A stretch of DNA of 64,000 nucleotides, taken from Candidatus Terraquivivens tengchongensis. Lineage in GTDB: Archaea; Thermoproteota; Nitrososphaeria_A; Caldarchaeales; Wolframiiraptoraceae. The DNA is taken from the NCBI GenBank assembly GCA_023261845.1, contig JALNJZ010000004.1, positions 69,693-133,692 of the forward strand, in the 5' to 3' direction. A model generated the notes under the pieces. The model saw only the letters and a list, made by a program, of their open reading frames with translations. It did no database searches and had not been told where the DNA came from. Numbering within the stretch: position 1 is the stretch's first letter; each line of letters opens with the position of its first letter. This document shows positions 30,796-62,977 of this stretch, one piece after another. Both the position numbers and the translations under genes were made by a program.

Positions 30796-31398
30796 ATGGA
30801 GAAAAATGTAAAATTCATGGTCGAGGCATATAAGGATGAGTACATTGATTCGTGCCTCTACAAAAACATGGCCGCATACGTTAAGGATGAGGTTAAGAGA
30901 CAGACCTTCGATGAGTTGTCCAAGGTAGAGAGGACGCACGCAAATTTTTGGTATGATTTTTTGGAGAGTATGGGAATAACGCCAAGCATAAGTCTGAGCT
31001 CTAGGTTGAAGTTGTTCTTCATGATTCTGTTCACGAGGCTTCTTGGATACAAGCTAACCATAAGGCTCTTTGAGGCGGGCGAGCTAGCCGCGATAAAGAA
31101 GTATTCAGAGCTATATAGGTCTGCAGACCTTACCAAGGATGTTCGAGAACAACTTGGAAAAATAATCTACGATGAGATATCACATGAAGAATACTTGATG
31201 TCTGAAGTGCTAAAGATTAAAACGATGTTTGAACGTGTGAGGGATGCGTTGTACGGTATGGTGGATGCGCTTGTCGAGGTTCTTGCGGTCGTGGTTGGCT
31301 TGGCGAGCGTAATTCGAGAACCTGTAGTTGTGGCTTTGGCAGGAATAATAGCCGGTTCTGCTGGGACTTTCTCCATGGCACTTCATCCATACAACTAG
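30796..31398 (+). CDS. ferritin-like/rubrerythrin-like domain protein with a truncated VIT1-like C-terminus
   Basis: Ferritin-like four-helix region followed by a single hydrophobic segment (LVEVLAVVVGLASV) typical of the start of a VIT1 domain. The gene ends at the putative deletion junction. Confidence 0.45.
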   Translation: MEKNVKFMVEAYKDEYIDSCLYKNMAAYVKDEVKRQTFDELSKVERTHANFWYDFLESMGITPSISLSSRLKLFFMILFTRLLGYKLTIRLFEAGELAAIKKYSELYRSADLTKDVREQLGKIIYDEISHEEYLMSEVLKIKTMFERVRDALYGMVDALVEVLAVVVGLASVIREPVVVALAGIIAGSAGTFSMALHPYN

Positions 31399-31399
31399 C

Positions 31400-31579
31400 A
31401 CAACCCAAGGTCAGGGTTAGCGTACTCTTACCGTAGCCAGTCGGAAGTAAAAAAATACAAAACGTTGGTAAATTATTATGTAAAAATTCATCAACTACCT
31501 TTAGGGGCTTATGTATGAGTGTTCTTGCCCGCCAAGAAAGAGCGCCACATATGTTCAAGTACAACTCATGTAATGTCAC
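31400..31579 (-). pseudogene. cas3: cas3' (helicase) N-terminal fragment, truncated
   Basis: Minus ORF beginning at 31579 and overlapping the cas5 stop: ...HKPLKVVDEFLHNNLPTFCIFLLPTGYGKSTLTL. This carries helicase motif I. The frame then runs antisense into the ferritin-like gene. Confidence 0.55.
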
Positions 31580-32366
31580 GTGAGATCACCATAACGTTTT
31601 CACCATCGGTGTATGCCAGACCCTTACTTGACAGTCTGAGTTCAATGACATCGCTTTCGATAAAACCACGTACTTTCCCTGGAATTATATAACGGACTGG
31701 TTTTGGTTTCTTAGCGCCGAATTCATCATCCCAAAACTCTACCTCATCGTAGTTATGGTTCTCAATCGATTCTTTAGCTTCTGAAGGAAAGTAATACGAA
31801 GTTTTGACAACGTCCTGTTTAACAAGCCATGAATCGTTAAGCTTAACATCCTCGACACTTACTATGCTCTCCTTTGAACCTATCCGAGTGATGCTCCAAG
31901 CACTACGAATTAAAGATTGTTTCCAGCCATCGCCTAAAATCGACTTTACCTTGTCTTCGTCTATCAAGTAAAGCGCATGAAACGCTCTATGAGGCGCAAG
32001 CACTTTTCCAGACGGAATTGCGCCAAACCTATACTCCATCAACGCTCTTCTTGCAGGTTTTTGGAAGTGAAGCACGATGTAACGATTGATATCCAGCCAT
32101 TCGCTAGCGACTTCATTGTGTTCATATTCGAATCTACATGAAGCAGCCTTTATGAAATTCATCAAAAATGCTGAGGATGTTAGATTGAGTTTTCTCCTCT
32201 TCATGGACGTGTATATTGTTTCGGAGTTATCCATGAGTCCCTTTAAAAGAGCTCCTTTGAGTGTATTAGGAGGTGGTAGCGCAAACGCTGGTTGACCCTT
32301 GCTAGAAAACGGATGTTTAACAGAGTAGCCCCAATGAAACCTCGCTCGTATATGAAGAAGCATCAT
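31566..32366 (-). CDS. cas5: CRISPR-associated Cas5 (subtype I-A)
   Basis: N-terminus LHIRARFHWGYSVKHPFSS...ALPPPNTLKGALLKGL carries the Cas5 PPPST-type motif. Confidence 0.75.
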   Translation of the reverse strand: MMLLHIRARFHWGYSVKHPFSSKGQPAFALPPPNTLKGALLKGLMDNSETIYTSMKRRKLNLTSSAFLMNFIKAASCRFEYEHNEVASEWLDINRYIVLHFQKPARRALMEYRFGAIPSGKVLAPHRAFHALYLIDEDKVKSILGDGWKQSLIRSAWSITRIGSKESIVSVEDVKLNDSWLVKQDVVKTSYYFPSEAKESIENHNYDEVEFWDDEFGAKKPKPVRYIIPGKVRGFIESDVIELRLSSKGLAYTDGENVMVISRDIT

Positions 32367-32371
32367 CTTCT

Positions 32372-33481
32372 TCAGCCGGACATTTCTTGGTCCACTAACT
32401 TAGCTACTTCCAGTAAAGCCTCCTCTAGGCTACTTCCTAGTTTAAGTGTGACATTATCGTAGGTCTCCTCAGCTATGTCCTTGTCTTCTTTTGTTACCGC
32501 AAATATGCTGACTTTTTCCTCTATACCATGTCTCGATAAAGCTTCAGTCATCTTCTTTGCTCGTTCCACAGAATCCCTTACATGAGTCCAATAGTTTCCA
32601 GGCGAAGCTACGAAATCCGACATTCTTGACAAAGTTATGACTGCCGACCTGACGTCGATTATCGGATGGAAACGGCTTTTCTTTGCTCCAAATGACAGGT
32701 TTGTAAACAATAGCGTAAGGGCATCAATCGCAAGCTTAATTCTTGGGATTCTTTGTTTCATGAGTTCTTCCTCCCTATTTACCTTGCCTTTAGGGACGGG
32801 CATGCCCTTCTCATCAAGCAAAGGTGTGGAGGGCATGGCTATACCATCTACATCTAAGTTGAACGTTAAAGTATACAGCGCAGAACCTACTTCGACATTA
32901 TAGGGAATCATCGGACGTGCTTGACCCGCTTCTTTCTCCTTCTCGACCTGGCTCAGGGCCATTCTGACATGGAATTGACTTTCGAGACCTATAGCATGGG
33001 AAGAATCTAGAGCTGGAATCATATAACTTGCTTGGAATCTAGAAGTTCTTCTTACAGGTATTTTGCCTGCATATAAGAACCCACCTATGTCTGCTACAAC
33101 ATCGTGTAGGAGCACATCTACCTCGAACCTTCTTGCATCTCTCTGATCTTCTGGCCGCTTAATACCTTCTAAGTAACTGTCATCCGCATACTTTATGAAC
33201 TCTTTCGCTGCAGTTAGCGTACCGACTGGAAGACCATACTTTGGAGCAAGGTCTACTAATATGCTTTGGTACTCGTGGGCTATAGTTTCACCTGAAACCG
33301 CTGGGACGTACCTTATTACATACTGACCGTCATCTTGTTTGACGACTATTGGCGCGGTCCTATGTCTAGAGAGATTTCCAACACTTTCGACCATGTTAAG
33401 CGCTTCAGCGTTTACCAGAAGCCTTAAGGAAAGACTAAGAAACATACTAACCACCTTCCTCCTTAAGCAACACATCCACAA
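32372..33481 (-). CDS. cas7: CRISPR-associated Cas7 / Csa2 (subtype I-A, DevR family)
   Basis: FLSLSLRLLVNAEALNMVESVGNLSRHRTAPIVV...YVPAVSGETIAHEYQ is the classic Csa2 N-terminus. The true start is probably the internal Met at about 33445. Confidence 0.8.
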   Translation of the reverse strand: MWMCCLRRKVVSMFLSLSLRLLVNAEALNMVESVGNLSRHRTAPIVVKQDDGQYVIRYVPAVSGETIAHEYQSILVDLAPKYGLPVGTLTAAKEFIKYADDSYLEGIKRPEDQRDARRFEVDVLLHDVVADIGGFLYAGKIPVRRTSRFQASYMIPALDSSHAIGLESQFHVRMALSQVEKEKEAGQARPMIPYNVEVGSALYTLTFNLDVDGIAMPSTPLLDEKGMPVPKGKVNREEELMKQRIPRIKLAIDALTLLFTNLSFGAKKSRFHPIIDVRSAVITLSRMSDFVASPGNYWTHVRDSVERAKKMTEALSRHGIEEKVSIFAVTKEDKDIAEETYDNVTLKLGSSLEEALLEVAKLVDQEMSG

Positions 33482-33827
33482 TCTTATAGGTGGCCTTAGC
33501 GGCGACCCGTCTGGCTAAAAGCAAGTCTTTCGTAGCCTCCTCCACGAAGTTATCCAGCTCACTATAGGAGGCAAGCTTCCCGGGAATTCGAAGCAACCTA
33601 TCCTCCCTATCTTTTACTTCGGTATAAGGCCTACCTGCTTCTTCGCAGACCCTTACTCTATCCTTTATAACGGTAAGAATTCGCGCAACCTCATAAGTGG
33701 CCTTTGCCACGACCTCGCCGCTCATGGCGTTGGCTAACCTATCCACGGTAGAATAGCTTCCCGTGGCTGCAACAACTGCTGCGAATGCAACAGCAACACC
33801 ATCAAACTTAGAGCTGATTGAACTCAT
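33447..33827 (-). CDS. csa5: putative Csa5 (type I-A small subunit)
   Basis: 126-aa helical protein immediately upstream of csa2, in the canonical I-A gene order. Confidence 0.45.
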   Translation of the reverse strand: MSSISSKFDGVAVAFAAVVAATGSYSTVDRLANAMSGEVVAKATYEVARILTVIKDRVRVCEEAGRPYTEVKDREDRLLRIPGKLASYSELDNFVEEATKDLLLARRVAAKATYKIVDVLLKEEGG

Positions 33828-34078
33828 ATGTTGTCAATAGTTCGATTTCCGCATATAAGCTTAACTAAGAATTTTGCATATATATGCAAACGGAGCTAAA
33901 TCAATTAAAGATGCACAATTAGGTGACACTCACTAATAACGTTCTAAGACACCAACACTATTCTAGAATTGGTTAATTCTGCTGTTGGGAGTGAAGCCTT
34001 TTTGCAAAATTTGTGCCAAAAATATTTTTATTTTTAATTAAGTATTTTAATAAGTATTTTAATAGTTAGGGGATAGAT

Positions 34079-34606
34079 ATGGGTAGGACTAGGGCTGTTT
34101 TGAGGAGGCAGGTTCCGCTCTGGCTATTAATACTCCTCGTCCTCTTGGTTGGGGCTGGAGCTGCTGTAGCCATAACAGCATATACGCTGACATATTATGC
34201 TAAGGCTGCTACAGTAATAGTCTCCGATGACGCCCTCATCCATATTGACGGTTTCCCTGAGTATGGGATCTACATAGCAGAGACAAGCAAGTCCGCCAAT
34301 ACGAATGGTGAACTGAGCTATCCGTATAGTAAAGTTAATAATGATATAACCGCCGGACACTATGTAATATCATTTACGATTAGAGAGAATGAGAACTTAG
34401 AAGCATATGCTGGCAGCCGCTGGAAGGTATACGTCTACTTCGGCGTCACTAAGCTGGGCGAGTTCACCATAACACAAAACACAGCAGAAAGAGACATCAT
34501 TGAGGGGGTTGAGGTCCACGTTGACCTCGGGCTCGGACCTGGACAGGAAGGTCAGCTGCCAGATATCAGTAATCCGGTGCGCATAATAGCCATAAGGCAA
34601 TCATAG
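34079..34606 (+). CDS. membrane-anchored/secreted hypothetical protein
   Basis: N-terminal TM/signal LWLLILLVLLVGAGAAVAITA. 175 aa. Confidence 0.4.
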   Translation: MGRTRAVLRRQVPLWLLILLVLLVGAGAAVAITAYTLTYYAKAATVIVSDDALIHIDGFPEYGIYIAETSKSANTNGELSYPYSKVNNDITAGHYVISFTIRENENLEAYAGSRWKVYVYFGVTKLGEFTITQNTAERDIIEGVEVHVDLGLGPGQEGQLPDISNPVRIIAIRQS

Positions 34607-34685
34607 CAGCTCACAACTATAACGCAAAACAAACCTTTTTTATATTTACTTTGCATAATACCACCATAAACTATTGGGATCTCTC

Positions 34686-35590
34686 GGTTGTTGAAGGAAT
34701 TGCCTTCTTAAGCATTCGCATCTGCGGGACTGTATTTACGTATATTGGCTAGCGATAAAATTATGTTGATCCATTTTTCTTCGGCTTTTGCTGAGGTCTC
34801 CTCGCCTAGCGCAGTATTAGGTCTCAGGTAGTTGTAGTATATTCGATACCCATTTATCATCTCCTCGAACTTTCCTCTTGCCCCTCTCTTCTCCCTAACC
34901 CACTCTTTGAGTGTGCCGTGCAGTCTCTCCACTATATTATTGTTCTCATCCTTTGCTAGGCCAGCATTACTTATGTGGCTTATTGGTAGGCCTAGGATCT
35001 CAAGAGCCCTTCTATAGGAGTGAAGCCCATCCGTCACCATTGCTTTTGGGATCTTGCCGGAGTTTTTAATTGCCTCCTTTATTGCCTTAATAGCGTCACC
35101 AGCGTCCCGACCAGATGTGAGCAATGACGCTATGTATATCCTCGTCTCATAGTCCATTACATTCCACAGGTACATCGGCTCGCCATTAACCTTAACGACA
35201 GTTTCGTCTGCAAGCCACTTATCGCCGACCTCCAATTTAGTCTCCTCAGCCTCCTTAAAGACCTCTATAAGCCTTGACCCCTACCATGGGTAGTGAACCC
35301 ATACTCTACCATCCTGGTCAACCATGAAAACCCTTCTGGTCAAACCTATGACCTCAGTAGCCTTATTTAAAAGATTTAATAGAAAAGCTAGTGCAGCTTC
35401 ATAGCCGCCTCTAGAAATGATGTCAACTACCTCGAAGACTTTATCAACTCTCATCAGATCAGCCCGGTTAATGCAGTATACTGCTAGGCAGAAACCATCC
35501 TCATCCTCCTTGAAAGCTCCATGATGCCATTCATTGTTATCAGTAGCAAGTCATCACCATACTTATCATGACTAAACTTGTTATTCAACC
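34686..35590 (-). mobile_element. IS6-family insertion sequence (about 905 bp) with imperfect terminal inverted repeats (GGTTG...) and a flanking tctctc direct repeat
   Basis: Ends GGTTGTTGAAGG (34686) and CAACC (35590, reverse complement GGTTGAATAAC). The flanks tctctc at 34680-85 and 35591-96 look like a target-site duplication. Confidence 0.5.
34708..35454 (-). pseudogene. IS6-family DDE transposase interrupted by an in-frame TAG (35281-35283)
   Basis: DETVVKVNGEPMYLWNVMDYETR...AMVTDGLHSYRRAL parallels IS26 Tnp (DETYVKVNG...YLYRAVD...NTDKAPAYGRAL). The N-terminal HTH part lies in the same frame upstream of a single amber codon. Confidence 0.6.
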
Positions 35591-35918
35591 TCTCTCGAAA
35601 ACGTTCGAAATAACTGTGTTCTCTCAGCATATGTTCGAGAACGTTAGTGTTTTATCATATACCCCGTTTCAACCTGAGACCAATCCTCTTCGAAATCTGA
35701 TTTGTTTTTCAATTCCCTTGTTGGTATCAGTGCGGCCTTTTTCCGGTTTCTACACCTTCATGAGCCGCTTTTGTAAACTACTCTTGCGGCGGCAGGGGTT
35801 AATCATGATATGTATATAAACTTATTCTGCGTCTCGGTAATACTGAATTTGTTCGGCCGAAGCATATGAAAGCCGAACGCAGAAAACATAATACCAGACA
35901 TAGGCTTTTACATCCTTT

Positions 35919-37445
35919 GTGAATGCTCAGAAGACCAGCCTTCTTATCATGGCACCTATAGGGGACCTCTCAGGCTGGAGGCTAGCAAACTACTATATTC
36001 AAGGCAAACGCTACTCGACGTGCTGCTCTGCCATAGCTCTGGCCCTACACAACTCCCAGCGTTATAACCACATACATCTGCAGATTTATGTGCTCGACTC
36101 TCTAACATGCTCACCTTTGCTTGGGAAGTGGTCCGAGGATCAACCTTTACAGAGGCAAGTCATTAAGCAAGTTTTGGAGAAATCGTTTAAAGAGGAGGTG
36201 CTTAAGGTTGCCCAGAGATCAGGTATTGGGGCGCAAGTAGGGCATAACGGTGCTGTTTACATAAGAAGCCAGTGCACCCTGACAATATCGGTCCACATAT
36301 CCCAAGCTGCTGGTGAATATGCTGTTAACAGGGAAGGAGCCCCAGTAGCATCAGCCGTATTTAACGGAGACCCCACATCAATATTCACAAAGATCATCTC
36401 CTCAGTCATAACACTTCCTGAATACGGCGACATACTGTTAGACCTCACACATGGTATCAACTACATGCAGTCGATGGCGGTCTATGCAGTTGAGATACTT
36501 AAAAATCTTATACCCGTCAACGTCAGGGTGCACAACGCCTCACCTTATCCGTCTGGAGTCTACCAAACAACCTTCTGCTTTCCCACAACCGTAAAGCAAG
36601 TAAAACAAAACATAATGAGAAATCAGCCCGATTTAATGATACTCGACCTATCAGGCCTGCAGCACCTTTGGGATCTTTCGGCAAGCTTCTCCAATCTAAC
36701 CCTTACTAGAAAAGATGTGGAGACTATTCGTAAAGCCCTCAATCACGTCATCTCTCAACTTAAGCTATGTAGCACAAGCTATAATGTTTTACAGGCTCGC
36801 CACACGGTACTGGCTTGGTATTACTTAGCGGCTGGGGTGATCACGATAGGTTACATCAATGCGGTAAAGTCTTTCAAAGAGACGGTTGATCTGGACAACA
36901 TCCAGCAACTTGCAAATAAAATAGAAGAGGCTGAAATCGGCTTCGATGTTGAGGGGGATAACGATCGCATCATATTCAAATACAGGGCTCGTACTGATTG
37001 GAGGTTTGCTGTTCCGTTCATTGTGTGGTACATGCGCCAGAGGCTAGCCCAAGTCATTAGCAGAAAGGATATTAAGGAAACGGATAAGATAACTGTCAAT
37101 GGAAATGAGCTGATAACACTGCTCGACGGACTCTCTAATGTAAATCCTCTCTACATGGCCGTCGGGAATGCTCTGAGATATGAGAGGGACAGGATACTCC
37201 AGAAGAGCCGAGACCTTAAGATGTATGAGTTCTCCATGGAAAGATCTGAATATAGGAAGCTGTTTTTCGGTACAGATAGTCCTCTCAGCCAGCTAAAGTT
37301 AAGTGAAATGAAAAGACACCTACAGGCACACGTGGGTATAACATACGAACCAGTCACCCATATAAAAATAACCGATAATGAGGTTCAGTTAACGCTGAGG
37401 GTTGGGGACCTTGGAGAGGGTCCCTACAACGTATGGCCTAAGTGA
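35919..37445 (+). CDS. csx1: Csx1-family CRISPR-associated CARF-HEPN protein (DxTHG motif)
   Basis: N-terminal CARF-like GDLSGWRLANYYIQG. DLTHGINYM is a DxTHG motif. C-terminal HEPN Rx4H (KRHLQAHVG). 508 aa. Confidence 0.55.
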   Translation: MNAQKTSLLIMAPIGDLSGWRLANYYIQGKRYSTCCSAIALALHNSQRYNHIHLQIYVLDSLTCSPLLGKWSEDQPLQRQVIKQVLEKSFKEEVLKVAQRSGIGAQVGHNGAVYIRSQCTLTISVHISQAAGEYAVNREGAPVASAVFNGDPTSIFTKIISSVITLPEYGDILLDLTHGINYMQSMAVYAVEILKNLIPVNVRVHNASPYPSGVYQTTFCFPTTVKQVKQNIMRNQPDLMILDLSGLQHLWDLSASFSNLTLTRKDVETIRKALNHVISQLKLCSTSYNVLQARHTVLAWYYLAAGVITIGYINAVKSFKETVDLDNIQQLANKIEEAEIGFDVEGDNDRIIFKYRARTDWRFAVPFIVWYMRQRLAQVISRKDIKETDKITVNGNELITLLDGLSNVNPLYMAVGNALRYERDRILQKSRDLKMYEFSMERSEYRKLFFGTDSPLSQLKLSEMKRHLQAHVGITYEPVTHIKITDNEVQLTLRVGDLGEGPYNVWPK

Positions 37446-37485
37446 TGCTAGAAAAGAATATAGACATCGTAGGCAACATCCATAT

Positions 37486-37848
37486 ATGCATAGTGATGTT
37501 CTGGACCTTGCAGCAGTCCTCAATACACTTAAGAAAACCCATGTCCAGACACTATGGACCATAGCCGAGCTCGGAGGAAGAGCTCGGCTCAAAGACCTTC
37601 AGAAGAAGATTAAGGCCTCAAAGTCAACACTCAGCAGCAGGCTGGCAGCTTTAGCTGACAAGGGATTAGTGACATATGAAGCTGGCTTTGCGGAGCTTGT
37701 CTATAAAACACCCCTATGTTATCTTGCAAACATTGAGAACATACCATACGCATATGTTGGCCTCCTCGGAAAACCCTTACCAGTGGAGCATAGGGAGCCT
37801 GAGACAGAGACAGCAATTAGCCTCCTTCGCGAGGGGGCATTACAATAG
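37486..37848 (+). CDS. winged-helix DNA-binding protein
   Basis: LKDLQKKIKASKSTLSSRLAALADKGLV is a wHTH recognition helix. The listed ORF starts at 37402 and overlaps csx1, but ATG 37486 is the more likely start. Confidence 0.45.
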   Translation: MHSDVLDLAAVLNTLKKTHVQTLWTIAELGGRARLKDLQKKIKASKSTLSSRLAALADKGLVTYEAGFAELVYKTPLCYLANIENIPYAYVGLLGKPLPVEHREPETETAISLLREGALQ

Positions 37849-37901: not shown

Positions 37902-38198
37902 ATGAGTCCGGAATTAAGGGCGATGCTTGATTTTGCAATACTTGACATCAGGGAGATGAACAGCATTGAGGCGGTTATGGATAGGATGACCAGAAGGATA
38001 CTTGACCTAACTAGACGCTATATCACAATTCTAGATTGCACATCAGGGACAAGGCCGGCTGGCATAGCCTATTATGCCATTGCTGACAAGCTCAAAACGC
38101 CCCTGATATATGTCTACGCTGATGAAAAAAGAATTTATTGGCTCAAAAACCGCAGAACGCTTATCACAGAGCTAAATTTACAGCACATAAAATCATAA
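37902..38198 (+). CDS. small protein with a CARF-like DxTxGxR motif
   Basis: ILDCTSGTRPAGIAYY. The same frame stays open upstream to 37821 (PPSRGGITIDKILVATTKDAIEEW), so the gene may be frameshifted or fused with the wHTH gene. Confidence 0.35.
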   Translation: MSPELRAMLDFAILDIREMNSIEAVMDRMTRRILDLTRRYITILDCTSGTRPAGIAYYAIADKLKTPLIYVYADEKRIYWLKNRRTLITELNLQHIKS

Positions 38199-38425
38199 CC
38201 TCTCTAAGACGGCTGAACCTTAAGAACTGTTCTTAATTCTCTTTTTGGGATTGAGAGCATATATCAAGACTCATGATAATTTTTAATCCTAACTTTATTC
38301 ATAATAAGGAGCATTCTTTGAAATGTAATAGGCACCATTACCTATAGAAAGATTTTATTTTTAAATATGTTAAAAACTTTAGCAGAGAGGTTGTGTAGCC
38401 TCGAAATCGTGAAGGAGATTGTAAC

Positions 38426-38827
38426 ATGGAAAAAACTTTAGGACCGAAAAGGATTCCTTTATTCATCGCAAAGATTATCTTCTTCGTTTATGGCATCGTG
38501 TGGACCCTTAAACGACGTTCAGCCAAGTCGATGAAAGATGTCTACGAGCTTTTTTACTTGGATTTTCTTAGATTGAACGAAAAAGATGTAGAGGTCGTTA
38601 AGCTTGACGATGACGTACTCATCACGCGCTGCAAAAATCCGTGTCCAATTCTTAATCTATCCCTTTCGCTTAAAGTTGACACAAAAATATCCTGCAAGAT
38701 TGTATCCGAGCCCGTTTGTAAATACGTGCTACGCAAGCTAAATCCAAGGCTGGCGTTCGAAAGAAATTACGGGCACATAAGACCTTACAGCGAGAGTTGT
38801 GAGGAAACAATTTACTGGAAAAATTGA
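38426..38827 (+). CDS. hypothetical protein
   Basis: 133-aa ORF. No recognisable motif. Confidence 0.3.
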   Translation: MEKTLGPKRIPLFIAKIIFFVYGIVWTLKRRSAKSMKDVYELFYLDFLRLNEKDVEVVKLDDDVLITRCKNPCPILNLSLSLKVDTKISCKIVSEPVCKYVLRKLNPRLAFERNYGHIRPYSESCEETIYWKN

Positions 38828-52560: not shown

Positions 52561-54372
52561 CTAAATCGCACATGTTTCAGGCATGGGTATTGCTTCTAGG
52601 AATTCCTTTTGGAATTCTGGCTCGGCAGCTAGCTCCACGTATTCTATCTTCTTAGCGACGTTACATGCAACATCTCTCAGGGTCTTTGAAAGAAGCATAG
52701 CTCTCGCACCGGCACCAGCAGCATTACCAACAATCCTTATCTTGCTCAAGTCTATGTTAGGATACAACCCTATAATTTTTGCCGAGATTGGATTAAGAAA
52801 GAAACCAAACGTACCGGCAACGTAAAGCCTCTCAGCTTCTGATACATCTACCTGAAGCTTCTTCATCAAAATGTTCATGCCAGTCCTGATCGCTGCCTTT
52901 GCCAGCTGTATTTCTCTTATGTCCTTCTGCGTCAACACTATGTCCTCGCCTATGGCCGTGTTCTCTTTGTATTCTACGACGAATTCTGGATAATTCCTAT
53001 CATTCATCCTTATGCGTCTTGTGCCTACATTCGTGTTCAACCTTCCCGACTTATCCATCAGACCTGTCGTAAATAAACCAGCAACTAAGTCGACAACCGC
53101 AGAACCTGTCATGCCTCTTGGCTTTACGTTACCTATAACACTATAGCTCACCTCACCATTAGCCATAACCTCTATCCCGTATATCGCACCGATGGTGGCC
53201 CGCATTCCGTAGGTTATGTGGGCGCCCTCAAACGCAGGGCCAGATGCGGTTGAGCAAGCGACAAATTTTCCATCCTTCTTGACGACTATCTCAGTATTCG
53301 TTCCTACATCAACTAAGATTGCAGCATCCGCATCTTCTTGCATGTTGGTTGCTATGATGTCGGCTACAACGTCCGAGCCCATATATCCCGCGATTAGCGG
53401 CGGCATAAAGAGTCTAGCTTCAGCATTCGCACGTATACCTACACTTTTTGCCATAACACATAATGGTTCTCTTGTCGTGGGTGTGTACGGGAAATATGCT
53501 AACCTTTTCGGCTCAAGACATAAAAGGAAATGATGCATGACTGTATTACCTACAGCCACTACCTCATAAACGTCTTCAACGTCACTTCCAGTTGTATCAC
53601 ATGCCGTGTTTATGAGTTTATTTATACAGCTGATTATTTTTTCTTGCAACGCTTTAACACCTTCCTTTAAGGCATAGTCGAGCCTAGATACGACGTCCTC
53701 ACCATAAGCTATCTGTGGGTTGATATCGGAAACTGTTGACAAAGTCTTACCACTCATTAGGTCGACTAGGTAACCAACAACTTTGGTTGTACCCACGTCT
53801 ACTGCGAAGCCAAGAGGTCTGCAGTTCTCTCGTACATCGATTATCTCATCGTTGTAAGTTATAAGCGAGAGTTTTTTCTCAATACCTACATCGGCTATAC
53901 GGGAAAGCTTCTGTAACGCATGAAGATTAAATCGTTTTGGTACACTTAACGATGATACAACTTCATCCAATGCACCCCATACTTTAGCAGGTAGTGTGAC
54001 GTTAACTTTCTGGACTACAGAATCAAACCGCTCCTCAAACACTTCGCCTTCAACTGATACGACATATTCGCCCAACCTACTCTCGCCCGGCACGAATACC
54101 GATATCGCATTCTCTCTAACTATCTTGCATCTGCAAGAAAGTCTATAACCTTCGTTCAGCTTCTTTGAGCTGAGCACTATTTTTTCATCACTAGTTAAAT
54201 CAGATATACTATCTGAGCCGACGATTATTTTGACCATACACTTTCCACATAACGCCTTTCCATTGCAAGGTCCAATGATGTCAATTCCTGCCCTGCGAGC
54301 AACTTCAAGCAAAGATTCGCCGATTTTTGCCTCAACCCTTTTCCCTTCTGGCATGAAGCTGACGATAACCAT
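52561..54372 (-). CDS. reductive activase of corrinoid proteins (RACo/COG3894: N-terminal [2Fe-2S] ferredoxin plus ASKHA ATPase)
   Basis: N-terminus GPCNGKALCGKC...YRLSCRC (plant-type ferredoxin cysteines) fused to an actin-fold ATPase region. 603 aa. Confidence 0.65.
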   Translation of the reverse strand: MVIVSFMPEGKRVEAKIGESLLEVARRAGIDIIGPCNGKALCGKCMVKIIVGSDSISDLTSDEKIVLSSKKLNEGYRLSCRCKIVRENAISVFVPGESRLGEYVVSVEGEVFEERFDSVVQKVNVTLPAKVWGALDEVVSSLSVPKRFNLHALQKLSRIADVGIEKKLSLITYNDEIIDVRENCRPLGFAVDVGTTKVVGYLVDLMSGKTLSTVSDINPQIAYGEDVVSRLDYALKEGVKALQEKIISCINKLINTACDTTGSDVEDVYEVVAVGNTVMHHFLLCLEPKRLAYFPYTPTTREPLCVMAKSVGIRANAEARLFMPPLIAGYMGSDVVADIIATNMQEDADAAILVDVGTNTEIVVKKDGKFVACSTASGPAFEGAHITYGMRATIGAIYGIEVMANGEVSYSVIGNVKPRGMTGSAVVDLVAGLFTTGLMDKSGRLNTNVGTRRIRMNDRNYPEFVVEYKENTAIGEDIVLTQKDIREIQLAKAAIRTGMNILMKKLQVDVSEAERLYVAGTFGFFLNPISAKIIGLYPNIDLSKIRIVGNAAGAGARAMLLSKTLRDVACNVAKKIEYVELAAEPEFQKEFLEAIPMPETCAI

Positions 54373-54512
54373 TCTTTCCTTGTTCCCCCAGATTCAGCTC
54401 ACATCCCCGTTAAAAGCATATATCCTTTAAAAGTCAAACTGCTATACCGATACAATATTTACACATACATGTAAAGCTATAAATAAATAGCAGATAAAAG
54501 TTTCGCGAGTAC

Positions 54513-55214
54513 GTGACGCAAGCAGAAGATGTTATAGTTAGCAAGCAACTAGCCAGACTTAAAGAGGCAATACTGAACGGTGATGCAAACACCGCAAGAG
54601 AGGCAGCTACTATCTTAAAAGAGAAAGGTCTCTTGCCCCTCGACATAGTTAATCGAGCCATTAAACCAGCGATGGATGAGATGGGTAAAAGGTATGAGAG
54701 GTTAGAGGCATTTCTTCCTGACCTAGTCTTAGCAGGTGAGGCGGCCCAAGAAGCATTGAAAGTTATACTACCAAAAGAAGGGGAAGAAGCTTTCATCAAG
54801 GGCAAGGTCGTCATCGGAACTATATACGGAGACATACATGATATAGGTAAGAACATCGTGGCAGCGATACTGAGTGCCAACGGTTACAAAATAATAGACC
54901 TAGGTAATGATGTGCCACCTGAAAGGTATATTGAAACGGCAAAGAAAGAGGGCGCGCATATTATAGGCATATCATGTCTCCTGACACCATCAATGTACTA
55001 TATGAGGGATGTTATCAGAAAGTTAGAAGAAGAAAACATTAGGGACAAGTTTTACGTGATCATTGGTGGAGCAGCAGTTTATCCAGATTGGGCTAAGGAA
55101 ATTGGTGCAGATGGATGGGCCAAAGATGCCGAAAGAGCGGTCCAGCTTTGCGATACCCTAATCGAAAGGGGCAAGGAACTTCCTAAACCCGTTATTTTAG
55201 GCGAATGGCGCTAG
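54513..55214 (+). CDS. mtaC: corrinoid (cobalamin-binding) protein, MtaC-like
   Basis: B12-binding DxHxxG motif (GDIHDIGKNIV) with an N-terminal helical cap. 233 aa. Confidence 0.75.
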   Translation: MTQAEDVIVSKQLARLKEAILNGDANTAREAATILKEKGLLPLDIVNRAIKPAMDEMGKRYERLEAFLPDLVLAGEAAQEALKVILPKEGEEAFIKGKVVIGTIYGDIHDIGKNIVAAILSANGYKIIDLGNDVPPERYIETAKKEGAHIIGISCLLTPSMYYMRDVIRKLEEENIRDKFYVIIGGAAVYPDWAKEIGADGWAKDAERAVQLCDTLIERGKELPKPVILGEWR

Positions 55215-55230
55215 TTGGAGGGGCAACTTC

Positions 55231-56613
55231 TTGGATTTACTTTTCAACATTCTAGACAAGACACTCACAGGTCCTCCTATTGAAAAACGTGATTTTGAGT
55301 TTAAGCTAGTTCCAAAGACGACACGAGATGTTCTTAAAGAATACGGCCTCGAAAAGACGTTTGACCCAGAGAACCCAATAAACACTGACCTAAAGCTCGC
55401 TGAACAATTTTACAAAGCTGGATATGAGTTAGCACTAAGGCTCGGCATGTTCTGTCCAGATACGAAAAGGAGAGTAATTTTCACAGAAGAAGAGATTAAG
55501 GAAGCTTTAAGGAACGCTCCAACAGAAGTCACGCTCGGCTATGGCAAAGATAAAGTTACGATAAGGAGTAGGAAACCTGAGGATAGAAATCCTCCAGTCG
55601 CCGAAGGGTCGGCTTTAGGCATGTCGATAAGCGAGGAGTACTTCATACCGCTCTGCATGGCAATAGCACAGTACAAAGTCATAGATATCATTCTTGCACC
55701 TACACTAGATACGATAAATAAACGTGAAATTAGGGCGAGGACACCTTACGAGACAATTATGGGAATGTATGAGGCCAAGTACGTTAAAGAGGCCCTAAGA
55801 CGTATAGGAAGACCTGGAATGCCGCTTCATGGTGTCGAGGGTGCTCCAACAGAGTACGGCTACTTCTCAGGCTTCCTCTGGGGTGGGTTCGAACCTGATA
55901 GAACAATTGGTATAGCGCTCATACCCGAGCCGATAACACTGTCCTATCAGATACTTCATAGAGTTGTCGTTAACCATCTAATAGGCTCACCCCTTGAGGC
56001 GGGACATATGCTAAACATAGGCGGCTACTTTGGTTCACCCGAAGGTGCGGTTGTCGGAGCCGTTGCTGCTCAGATTCTTCAGACTGCATCGATGTTCCCA
56101 ACAGTCGTTGAAAGCACAATACTAGATGCGAGGTATTTCGTAAACACTAACAGAGAGGCTCTTTGGGCTACGAGCACTAGCATGCAGGCGAGAACGCTCG
56201 GCAACAAGGTAATGAACCTTGGCATAACGAGCCAGGTGAGTGGTCCATGTACGGACATGTTACTGTATGAAACGACAACGATAGCTATAGCGGATTCTGT
56301 TTCAGGTGTAGCGATAGAGATCGGCACAAGACCAGCGGCATGTAGGTACAAAGATCACGGAAGCGCGCTCGAAAACAAATTCTTCGCAGAGGTTCTTAAA
56401 TCGTCGGCTAAGAACTTAAAACTTACAGACGCGAACGAGATGGTAAAGGCACTTTTGCCCAAGTATGAGCACAAGCTCAAAGATCCTCCAAAAGGAAAAA
56501 GCTTCCCAGAATGTACGGACCTAAGGACGCTCCAACCTTCGAAAGAGTGGTTGGAGATATACGAAAGAGTTTGGAAGGAACTCGAGGACCTTGGACTTCC
56601 TCGGTGGGAGTAG
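55231..56613 (+). CDS. MttB-superfamily substrate:corrinoid methyltransferase (non-pyrrolysine)
   Basis: IFTEEEIKEALRNAPTEVTL and IGGYFGSPEGAVVGAVAAQIL parallel MtgB/MttB segments (VEEAIASAPSEFVL; SIGGPEAALNCAGAQ). 460 aa. No internal TAG. Confidence 0.45.
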   Translation: MDLLFNILDKTLTGPPIEKRDFEFKLVPKTTRDVLKEYGLEKTFDPENPINTDLKLAEQFYKAGYELALRLGMFCPDTKRRVIFTEEEIKEALRNAPTEVTLGYGKDKVTIRSRKPEDRNPPVAEGSALGMSISEEYFIPLCMAIAQYKVIDIILAPTLDTINKREIRARTPYETIMGMYEAKYVKEALRRIGRPGMPLHGVEGAPTEYGYFSGFLWGGFEPDRTIGIALIPEPITLSYQILHRVVVNHLIGSPLEAGHMLNIGGYFGSPEGAVVGAVAAQILQTASMFPTVVESTILDARYFVNTNREALWATSTSMQARTLGNKVMNLGITSQVSGPCTDMLLYETTTIAIADSVSGVAIEIGTRPAACRYKDHGSALENKFFAEVLKSSAKNLKLTDANEMVKALLPKYEHKLKDPPKGKSFPECTDLRTLQPSKEWLEIYERVWKELEDLGLPRWE

Positions 56614-57973
56614 CTTGCCATTCAGAGAGTTGGCATATGAAAACGCATATGAGCTTGCCTTCGGTTTTGCTAAGAAACCTCTAAGTTATGGGTTAGGGCT
56701 TTCTGTCGGTGATGGTAAAGTTATACCCGAAGTCAAATACTTGCTAAAACCTGGCCTTGAACAGAATCTCAATGCACTTGTGGAAGAATATAAGAAGGTA
56801 ACGCTTTCAATCATGGAAAGAGCAGCAAACTTAGGGGTCACAGACGTTCAGCTAGAGACGGAGTTTGTTGAACCTATGACTATGAACCCTAGCTGGGGGG
56901 CGGCTGTGATAGAGACACAGAAAGAGGTTCTTTCAACCTATTACGAAAGGTATGGAATTAGGTCAGCACTTAGAGCTACAATAGCCGACGTAAGGAGGTT
57001 TAGTAAGGGGCTTCGTAAGGGCGAGTATTTTCAGGCGATCATGGATTCGTTTATAAACGCGGCCGAGAGTGGTGCGGACCTACTATCAATCGAATCGAGA
57101 GGAGGTCAGGAAATTTTTTCATACTCGCTCATAAGAAACGATCTAGCAGGCATGCTGTTCTCTTTTGGTATCCTCGCGCCGAGGGATGTCAGATACATTT
57201 GGAAAGAAATTGTGAAGAATGCAAAGAGGGTCATACCTGCAGGAGATACCGCTTGTGCCCTAGCTAACAGCGCCATGGTCTTAGCAAACGGGTTAGTTAA
57301 CAGGAAGATACCGCATACGCTGGCCGCAGTCATTAGGGCCATGTCGGCGGTCAGAACTCTGGCATGCTACGAAGAAGGTGCAATGGGTCCCGGAAAAGAT
57401 TGCGCATACGAGAATGTAATAATCAAAATAATCACAGGTTATCCGATGAGTATGGAAGGCAAGACTTCGGCCTTTGCCCACTCCAGCCTAGTAGGTAACA
57501 TAGTTGCCGCAGCATGCGACCTTTGGTCCAACGAGACGATAGTCGTTGAGGATACATTTGGTGGCAAGACACCTGCTATAATATTTGAGATGTTAAGTTA
57601 CGACACGGCTTTAATGAACGAGTCGATAAGGTCAAGAAATAACAAGATTCTTCAACAATTGTTCATTAACTCAGACAAGTACAGAGACCCGCAAGCTTTA
57701 ATCTTGTCACCCGATAACGCGTTCAGAATAGCGTCCGCCATTGTTTCAGCAAATTCGGATTACGAAAGAACAATTTCCGCCGCACTTGAGGCAATCCGTA
57801 TAATAGAGGATAATCTGAGTATATTGAATATGCCAGAAATAGAGAAGCGATACCTTGCGACACTGAAAAACTTTTTTGAAGCAGTTCCTGATGAGCATAA
57901 ATTAATTGAAGAATCTATTAAAAAGTATAGCGGAAAGGTTCCTGAATTTAATGCAACCAATTACGAGCTTTGA
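56591..57973 (+). CDS. mtaB: methanol:corrinoid methyltransferase MtaB
   Basis: NPSWGAA, GADLLSIESRGG, AGDTACALANSAM, GPGKDCAYENVIIKIITGYPMSMEGKTS, CDLWSNE and DKYRDPQA all match MtaB motifs. 460 aa. TTG start. Confidence 0.75.
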   Translation: MDFLGGSSLPFRELAYENAYELAFGFAKKPLSYGLGLSVGDGKVIPEVKYLLKPGLEQNLNALVEEYKKVTLSIMERAANLGVTDVQLETEFVEPMTMNPSWGAAVIETQKEVLSTYYERYGIRSALRATIADVRRFSKGLRKGEYFQAIMDSFINAAESGADLLSIESRGGQEIFSYSLIRNDLAGMLFSFGILAPRDVRYIWKEIVKNAKRVIPAGDTACALANSAMVLANGLVNRKIPHTLAAVIRAMSAVRTLACYEEGAMGPGKDCAYENVIIKIITGYPMSMEGKTSAFAHSSLVGNIVAAACDLWSNETIVVEDTFGGKTPAIIFEMLSYDTALMNESIRSRNNKILQQLFINSDKYRDPQALILSPDNAFRIASAIVSANSDYERTISAALEAIRIIEDNLSILNMPEIEKRYLATLKNFFEAVPDEHKLIEESIKKYSGKVPEFNATNYEL

Positions 57974-62856: not shown

Positions 62857-62977
62857 CCCGCGGTAGCTCAGCCTGGTAGAGCTTCCGGCTGTAGGGTCTG
62901 CCTTTGGCAGACCTCCCCAGCCTACCGGGCGCACAGAAACCGGAGTGTCGCAGGTTCAAATCCTGCCCGCGGGACCA
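62857..62977 (+). tRNA. tRNA-Tyr (anticodon GUA) with a 44-nt intron (62895..62938) and encoded CCA
   Basis: Hand-folded: C1-G72 acceptor CCCGCGG/CCGCGGG, D-arm GCTC/GAGC, anticodon stem TCCGG/CCGGA with loop CTGTAG|intron|A, T-arm GCAGG-TTCAAAT-CCTGC, then ACCA. Confidence 0.8.

Follow-up and report, generated by a model that had tools for sequence, protein, structure and literature searches.

We analysed a window of 64,000 nucleotides from Candidatus Terraquivivens tengchongensis (positions 69,693 to 133,692 of contig JALNJZ010000004.1, assembly GCA_023261845.1) and focused on one gene in it, csx1, whose product carries an N-terminal CARF domain and a C-terminal HEPN motif (Table 1). Upstream of csx1, beginning about 2 kb away and on the opposite strand, lie the type I-A genes csa5, cas7 and cas5a; an IS6-containing block separates them from csx1, truncated copies of a rubrerythrin-VIT1 gene, cas3 and csa1 mark the edges of the altered segments, and a gene joining a winged helix-turn-helix (wHTH) to a CARF domain overlaps the 3′ end of csx1. 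The surrounding genes belong to archaeal housekeeping and metabolism (MCM, GINS, a Hel308-like helicase, glnA, methyltransferases). Compared with sister genomes, this arrangement points to a CRISPR-associated effector that has probably been stranded by the recent loss of its partners.

The csx1 open reading frame (ORF) is given in NCBI as 508 or 498 aa, depending on the assembly. The 508-aa start is the better call because homologues keep the first beta-strand, LLIIAPIGD, which lies N-terminal of Met11. Pfam PF22230 (Csx1_CARF) matched aa 9-197 with 60.3 bits against a cut-off of 24.7, in agreement with the CARF-like N-terminus that a preliminary description of this DNA had read from the letters GDLSGW (aa 15-20). 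The same description had reported the DxTHG motif of TIGR02549, and this model was indeed matched (23.5 bits, cut-off 21), the motif reading DLTHG at aa 175-179. PADLOC model PDLC01035 (Csx1/Csm6, 'CARF+HEPN') covered aa 9-493 (E 2.4e-35), NCBI labels the product 'TM1812 family CRISPR-associated protein', and PADLOC labels place Csx1 of this type in the 'CARF9' clade (COG1517 / TIGR01897 / PF22230). The TIGR01897 Csx1 equivalog model reached 59.5 bits and covered only the N-terminal 178 of its 417 profile positions; since this whole-protein score is under the cut-off of 110, the product belongs to the superfamily and is divergent within it. Taken together, these results identify it as a genuine Csx1-superfamily CARF-HEPN protein of a divergent subfamily. 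The proper annotation is Csx1-family (divergent), a standard type III accessory RNase, and not a stand-alone system of a new kind.

Members of the close subfamily are very scarce: they form 5 clusters in a set of 5.8 billion proteins, and when 1.84 billion representatives were searched exhaustively with the profile, 7 matches fell below E 1e-30 and about 160 more distant ones were returned. An extended alignment of 29 sequences, including 28 search matches picked for near-full-length coverage, was used to examine conservation, and all of its members matched TIGR01897 (best E 1e-74). D175, H178 and H471 are kept in 29/29 sequences, R466 in 27/29, G179 in 28/29 and T177 in 26/29, the C-terminal consensus over R466/H471 being RNxxAHAGL. 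R466 and H471 are also invariant in the 6-member close family. Because the pair is conserved across both alignments, the R-x4-H motif RHLQAH, named in the preliminary description as a HEPN signature, is not a chance match.

A CARF fold had been proposed as a check by structure prediction, and it was found: the AlphaFold2 model, built with the 29-sequence alignment as input, had a pLDDT (predicted local distance difference test) of 89.4 and a predicted template-modelling score (pTM) of 0.90, and the top Foldseek matches in the PDB were all Csx1-type CARF-HEPN RNases. The best was Thermococcus onnurineus Csm6 (ToCsm6; 6o6s/6o6z, apo and with cyclic tetra-adenylate, cA4) at E 8e-12 and a TM-score of 0.56 by query and 0.64 by target, and further top matches were Pyrococcus furiosus Csx1 (PfuCsx1, 4eog), Sso1389 (2i71), Sulfolobus islandicus Csx1 (SisCsx1, 6qzt) and Marinitoga Csx1-Crn2 (8y7g). 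In a profile search of PDB sequences, the family motif fell over RNFIAHSGF of PfuCsx1 and RNVLAHAGL of ToCsm6; moreover, the deposited ToCsm6 H381A chain (RNVLAAAGL) has alanine in the column of H471, so that H471 is the counterpart of the experimentally targeted HEPN histidine. On this single-chain evidence, both the CARF fold and the HEPN motif, features whose lack would have counted against the preliminary description, are borne out.

More distant family members show in what company such proteins occur. Three of them (P0005-P0007, 29-35% identity) adjoin Csx3 (Crn3 family) and double-CARF proteins of 507-531 aa that carry no Pfam annotation, and the family is therefore generally embedded in neighbourhoods of cyclic oligoadenylate (cOA) signalling. 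No Cas10 was present on the 11-14-kb contigs carrying these three genes. A Cdc48-type ATPase gene also occurs near these loci. The closest homologue in another named genome, Archaeon HR02 (BEHE01000001.1; L014 10001-11536; 36% identity), is broken into three consecutive ORFs beside an IS110-family transposase gene, among metabolic genes; no cas genes were found among the scanned ORFs around it, and it, too, appears to be a decayed orphan from this subfamily. A profile scan of contigs of GTDB species representatives gave no csx1 of about 100% identity, and exact peptide patterns gave no near-identical locus; either the species representative is without csx1 or the species is unrepresented.

Within the window, the preliminary description had noted the absence of cas10, csm and cmr genes, and this held: none was found in the 64 kb by Pfam and NCBIfam scans of the larger ORFs or among Pfam labels over 21.6-47.4 kb, and tblastn of a sister-genome Cas10 against the window gave no match. 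No CRISPR array was found in the window by Tandem Repeats Finder, by a direct-repeat search or with the sister array repeat allowing up to 3 mismatches, and the Rfam scan of the window returned two tRNAs and nothing relevant. The label 'orphan' was nevertheless too simple, since it overlooked the type I-A genes csa5, cas7 and cas5a, the stubs of cas3 and csa1, and the frameshifted wHTH-CARF gene. The type I-A set is incomplete, with csa5, cas7 and cas5a intact, 70 codons of cas3, and no CsaX gene, cas6 or array; the upstream module is a remnant. The IS6 element said to adjoin csx1 was found there as well. Its transposase matched NF033587 with 88.5 bits (cut-off 125) and PF13610 with 72.7 bits, and no convincing pair of terminal inverted repeats was found for this copy, which is defective. 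Neither the 175-aa ORF in the same block nor a 133-aa ORF farther on (38426-38827) had a Pfam, NCBIfam or PADLOC match.

A 99%-identical csx1 orthologue occupies the same chromosomal position in GCA_038742275.1, from the same Nitrososphaerota population of metagenome-assembled genomes (MAGs), and the glnA-side flank is collinear with this locus (L003) from window position 35498 on, at 98.8% identity. There, csx1 is preceded in order by csa1 (323 aa), two small ORFs, a gene for a Csx14/Crn1-like CARF protein (Csx14/NE0113), cas6 and a ten-gene type III module, which is complete and, across the sister MAGs, lies 4-8 kb from csx1. Thus, linkage of csx1 to Cas10, which is lacking within the 64-kb window, is present for an orthologue differing by 1%. 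Encoded in the module are several Cas7 proteins of the Csx7 type, a subunit resembling Csx10, and a Cas10 of 891 aa that carries an HD domain and, at aa 636, an intact GGDD motif. On the basis of these subunits the module is called III-D-like; III-D is the subtype reported to prevail among type III systems of Nitrososphaerota (PMC12669027). Downstream of the sister csx1, a single ORF encodes a 262-aa wHTH-CARF protein, which PADLOC matched to CasR/Csa3 and, over aa 139-249, to CARF_m5/CARF4.

In GCA_038881105.1, GCA_038887235.1 and GCA_023268025.1, a complete type I-A system stands beside the type III module. Its gene set comprises csa3, csa1, cas1, cas2, cas4, an array, cas6, csaX, cas3 (845 aa), cas5a, cas7 and csa5, and the arrays hold 15-22 repeats with spacers that differ between genomes. 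We also observed that the CRISPR locus is polymorphic in the population: some genomes carry the full I-A system after VIT1 and a flavin reductase gene, and in others the flavin reductase gene adjoins a block of NRD1, glutamate synthase and hisD genes, with no I-A module. The same metabolic block separates the I-A and III-D modules in GCA_038742275.1, and the two modules abut in GCA_038881105.1.

Alignment of these loci with the window located two deletions. Window 27000-31380 matches the sister nitroreductase-ATPase-VIT1 region at 99.6-99.9% identity, and window 31371-33890 matches the sister segment cas3(5′)-cas5a-cas7-csa5 at 99.6-99.8% (blastn). At their ends these matches share 10 bp, CTCCATGGCA, a sequence present in both VIT1 and antisense cas3 of intact genomes, and this overlap indicates a microhomology-mediated deletion of about 10.6 kb that fused VIT1 to cas3 codon 70. 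Lost with it were the flavin reductase gene, csa3, csa1, cas1, cas2, cas4, the array, cas6, csaX and the greater part of cas3. Deletion 2 extends from a point just upstream of csa5 to codon 33 of csa1 and eliminated the type III module in full, together with cas6, csx14 and the bulk of csa1; its site is occupied by the IS6-containing block, and the deletion is associated with this IS6 copy. The truncation of VIT1, cas3 and csa1 marks the state of the window as derived. The stubs are still almost identical to the corresponding intact genes, which indicates that the deletions are recent.

Since the source is a MAG, and IS copies and repeats are typical points of mis-assembly, the apparent deletions might instead be chimeric joins. 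Both junctions, with the truncated genes and the IS6 block, are however also found in the independently assembled GCA_038823985.1, and a short contig of GCA_038822585.1 shows the left junction together with a portion of the insert, a recurrence that makes an artefact unlikely. Furthermore, the repeat at the first junction, at 10 bp, is too short to mislead an assembler, and the frameshift and the csx1 substitutions described below co-segregate with the deleted state. A mis-assembly is therefore scarcely credible.

The genes left behind differ from their sister counterparts in ways that suggest decay. In the wHTH-CARF gene, a 1-nt deletion (GAGGAGGGC to GAGG-GGGC, at about 37834/37835) was located by nucleotide alignment and by tblastn over two frames, and the frameshift is common to the deletion lineage. 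Between csx1 and its sister orthologue there are 8 nucleotide differences, 6 replacement and 2 silent, giving a ratio of replacement to silent change (pN/pS) of 0.87, compared with 0.04 for glnA (1 replacement, 7 silent) and 0.08 for a kaiC-like gene (1 replacement, 4 silent). When polarised with outgroups, at least 3 of the csx1 replacements fall on the branch of the window. One of these is P17L, which falls where the CARF domain starts, in the segment WG-x-P-x-x-W. D501G is also derived; the four outgroup homologues from the close family all have aspartate there. Leu17 and Gly501 are limited to variants of the deletion lineage (P0186, P0187 and P0188), and the Cas10-linked variants keep proline and aspartate. 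These sequence comparisons are suggestive of relaxed constraint on csx1.

The csx1/wHTH-CARF pair is flanked by two solitary sites that resemble a CRISPR repeat and agree with the sister array repeat CTTTCAATTCTCTTTTTGAGATTC at 17/24 and 19/24 positions; by chance, about 0.6 sites with 17/24 or more would be expected per 64 kb. Related stretches of the sister genome are L003 5927-6047 and 9724-9815; in that genome, two repeats lie 66 nt apart upstream of csx1 as a one-spacer mini-array, of which the window retains only one repeat. Upstream of the sister cas6 stands the same combination of a repeat and a stretch of about 90 nt with a TATA-like box at its end, which suggests that the element is either a duplicated array end with its promoter or a shared regulatory element. 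The mini-array spacer was considered as a self-regulatory guide, and this idea was dropped as the spacer had no meaningful match in the sequences compared.

Overall, we consider csx1 a recently orphaned and probably idle Csx1, a relic of a I-A plus III-D defence island stranded by deletions, with a probability of roughly 0.7. By homology with characterised relatives, the protein should act as a dimer whose CARF domains bind cOA and whose composite HEPN site, built from R466/H471, cleaves RNA; we infer both its activation by cOA and its RNase activity. Cas10 would have synthesised cOA once the type III complex met foreign RNA, and the nucleotide would have switched on non-specific RNA cleavage allosterically. 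The ligand would most likely be cA4, by analogy only, cA4 being the ligand in the closest structures. To judge from domain content, the GGDD Cas10 would have been the ancestral source of cOA, with the Csx14/Crn1-like protein as candidate ring nuclease and the wHTH-CARF protein as a putative regulator responding to cOA. In the ancestral arrangement, which sister genomes retain, csx1 stood at the edge of a defence supercluster of a III-D-like module, cas6, csx14, csa1 and the wHTH-CARF gene, with a complete I-A system adjoining. The two recent deletions would have removed the cOA source and left csx1 intact with its promoter region and no local activator. As no cOA partner survives in the window, the present csx1 is most likely an intact but unactivated RNase gene; this idleness is inferred too, while the evidence directly shows the fold and motifs, the synteny, the junctions, the frameshift and the pattern of substitutions.

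Several observations weigh against an idle relic, and some of them favour instead a functional Csx1 acting in trans, for which a type III system, or a cyclase of another kind, would supply the activating cOA from elsewhere in the genome. The csx1 ORF is intact, the catalytic and ligand-motif residues are all kept except P17, and the upstream element with its TATA-like box is retained. Several independent MAGs from the deletion lineage also preserve the gene without change, so it could remain expressed and useful. The P0005-P0007 genes, which stand with Csx3 and double-CARF genes on contigs free of Cas10, indicate that family members can sit apart from effector modules, and orphans are frequent among CARF-type genes in general, making up about 25% of csx15 genes (PMC13148439). 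The substitution counts behind the signs of decay come to just 8 differences, and a high dN/dS (the ratio of nonsynonymous to synonymous substitution rates) is frequent in defence genes anyway, so relaxed selection is suggested rather than demonstrated.

The search for Cas10 elsewhere in the genome bears on the same question. The sister Cas10 belongs to a cluster of six members, and in assemblies that carry it, its accession number and the csx1 accession stand 11-12 apart. Window-type Csx1 has five NCBI accessions, none with a sister-cluster Cas10 nearby, and the next-closest Cas10 proteins, at 59% identity, occur in other assemblies only. This check is weak negative evidence and no proof of absence: some assemblies with sister-type Csx1 also lack a listed Cas10, MAGs are incomplete, and a second type III system, more distantly related, or some further source of cOA may exist in the unsampled part of the genome. 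Against action in trans, in addition to the distribution of Cas10, stand the position of the sister orthologue physically within a type III neighbourhood, the frameshift in the co-oriented wHTH-CARF partner, and the loss of a near-invariant CARF residue in P17L together with a pN/pS of about 0.9. We regard a trans-acting Csx1 as unlikely. This reading corresponds to the stand-alone sensor serving a distant type III locus, one of two functions offered in the preliminary description, and is disfavoured by the Cas10 module beside the sister orthologue and by the deletion scars in the window.

The other function offered there was that of a domesticated HEPN RNase with a role independent of CRISPR, for example stress-activated or toxin-like, and the only point in its favour is that an intact ORF persists without its cognate system. 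The orphaning is, however, very recent, the stubs still matching the sister genes at 99.6-100% identity, so that there has been no time for a new function to evolve; only 6 residues separate the protein from its CRISPR-linked orthologue, and no new partner genes have arrived, just an IS6 fragment and the unannotated 175-aa ORF. Such a role is very improbable. The chance is also small, if slightly better, that csx1 is kept for defence without its cognate type III module, using cOA from a divergent cyclase, virus-derived nucleotides, or a ligand specificity altered by P17L. Were this so, csx1 would be a natural case of a CARF-HEPN effector that had outlived CRISPR and uncoupled from it.

The locus offers a snapshot of CRISPR-Cas decay in one population, in which full I-A plus III-D, I-A-less and doubly deleted states coexist and the junctions are resolved to the nucleotide. 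Early marks of erosion can be seen in the stranded signalling genes, as a frameshifted CARF regulator and a replacement at a conserved position of the CARF domain. The locus illustrates one origin of 'orphan' CARF effectors, and it advises caution: sister genomes should be compared before a function is assigned.

Table 1. Features of the csx1 locus (window positions) and loci of distant relatives (positions within the locus named)
Feature	Position	Strand	Basis or remark
rubrerythrin-VIT1 gene, cut to 200 aa	30796-31398	+	370 aa in at least 6 related genomes; left scar of deletion 1
cas3 stub, first 70 codons of 845-aa cas3	31370-31579	-	tblastn; 100% identical to sister
Deletion-1 junction, 10-bp microhomology CTCCATGGCA	31371-31380		overlapping blastn ends, three-way junction alignment
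cas5a, type I-A	31566-32366	-	TIGR01874 61.3 bits, cut-off 23
cas7/csa2, type I-A	32372-33445	-	TIGR02583 240 bits, cut-off 212.6
csa5, type I-A small subunit	33447-33827	-	PF09702 56.5 bits; 99.6-99.8% identical to sister I-A loci
1.6-kb block without counterpart in sister loci	33891-35497		blastn; occupies the expected site of the type III module
175-aa ORF, N-terminal hydrophobic/transmembrane segment	34079-34606	+	inside the IS6-containing block
IS6-family transposase gene	34708-35454	-	one in-frame stop
csa1 stub, codons 2-33 of 323-aa gene	35493-35588	-	tblastn; right scar of deletion 2
csx1 upstream element	35706-35825	+	solitary degenerate CRISPR-like repeat 35706-35731, ~90 nt, TATA-like box 35813-35820
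csx1	35919-37445	+	uninterrupted 508-aa ORF, GTG start; CARF-helical-HEPN, divergent Csx1 subfamily
CARF domain (aa 9-197)	35943-36509	+	PF22230, TIGR02549, PDB profile alignment
csx1 codon 17, P17L	35967-35969	+	derived; Pro in 26/29 aligned Csx1 sequences, one gapped; Leu in deletion-lineage variants P0186 and P0187 only
DxTHG motif (DLTHG, D175-G179)	36441-36455	+	inside the CARF domain
HEPN R-x4-H motif (RHLQAH, R466-H471)	37314-37331	+	close-family alignment, PDB profile alignment
wHTH-CARF gene, 5′ wHTH part	37411-37848	+	overlaps csx1 3′ end; MarR/Csa3-HTH matches; cut by frameshift
wHTH-CARF gene, 3′ CARF half (98-aa ORF)	37902-38198	+	100% identical to sister protein aa 143-262 (tblastn)
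Second solitary CRISPR-repeat-like site	38230-38253	+	just past the wHTH-CARF gene; 19/24 vs sister array repeat
Loci of distant family members	L002 5250-9122; L026 636-2591, 9825-11348; L027 3497-5092		

Farther along the window, positions 52561-57973 hold a methyltransferase cluster with a RACo-type corrinoid activase, a B12-binding corrinoid protein, an MtmB-family protein and MtaB, the match of the last to methanol:corrinoid methyltransferase reaching 552 bits. The MtmB-family protein has 460 aa and no in-frame stop, and is therefore presumably a non-pyrrolysine homologue. A tRNA gene at 62857-62974 (+) spans 118 nt against a model of 71 positions and so presumably contains an intron.

Compared with the supercluster of GCA_038742275.1 and GCA_038881105.1, the window shares the chromosomal position, flanks that are 98.8-99.9% identical, and orthologous csa5, cas7, cas5a, csx1 and wHTH-CARF genes, whereas cas10, the type III RAMP genes, both cas6 genes, csx14, csa3, cas1/2/4, csaX and the array are gone and the IS6 block stands in their place. 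The wHTH-CARF gene resembles Csa3 in combining a CARF domain with a winged HTH, in the matches of Csa3/CasR profiles to its HTH part and in its CRISPR-Cas neighbourhood; it differs in the reversed order of its domains, with the wHTH N-terminal and the CARF C-terminal, and a canonical Csa3 (220 aa, Csa3_N) is present separately in the sister I-A module. The csx1 product is longer than the solved Csx1 RNases (508 aa vs 376-466), shares only 11-15% identity with their structures, and begins its HEPN motif with RH where they have RN. Nevertheless, it shares with ToCsm6 (6O6S/6O6Z), PfuCsx1 (4EOG), Sso1389 (2I71) and SisCsx1 (6QZT/6R7B) the order of CARF domain, helical region and HEPN domain, the DxTHG motif in the CARF domain, R-[NH]-x3-H-x-G near the C-terminus, and a structural match over the full length (Foldseek E 8e-12 to 1e-9, target TM-score 0.52-0.65).

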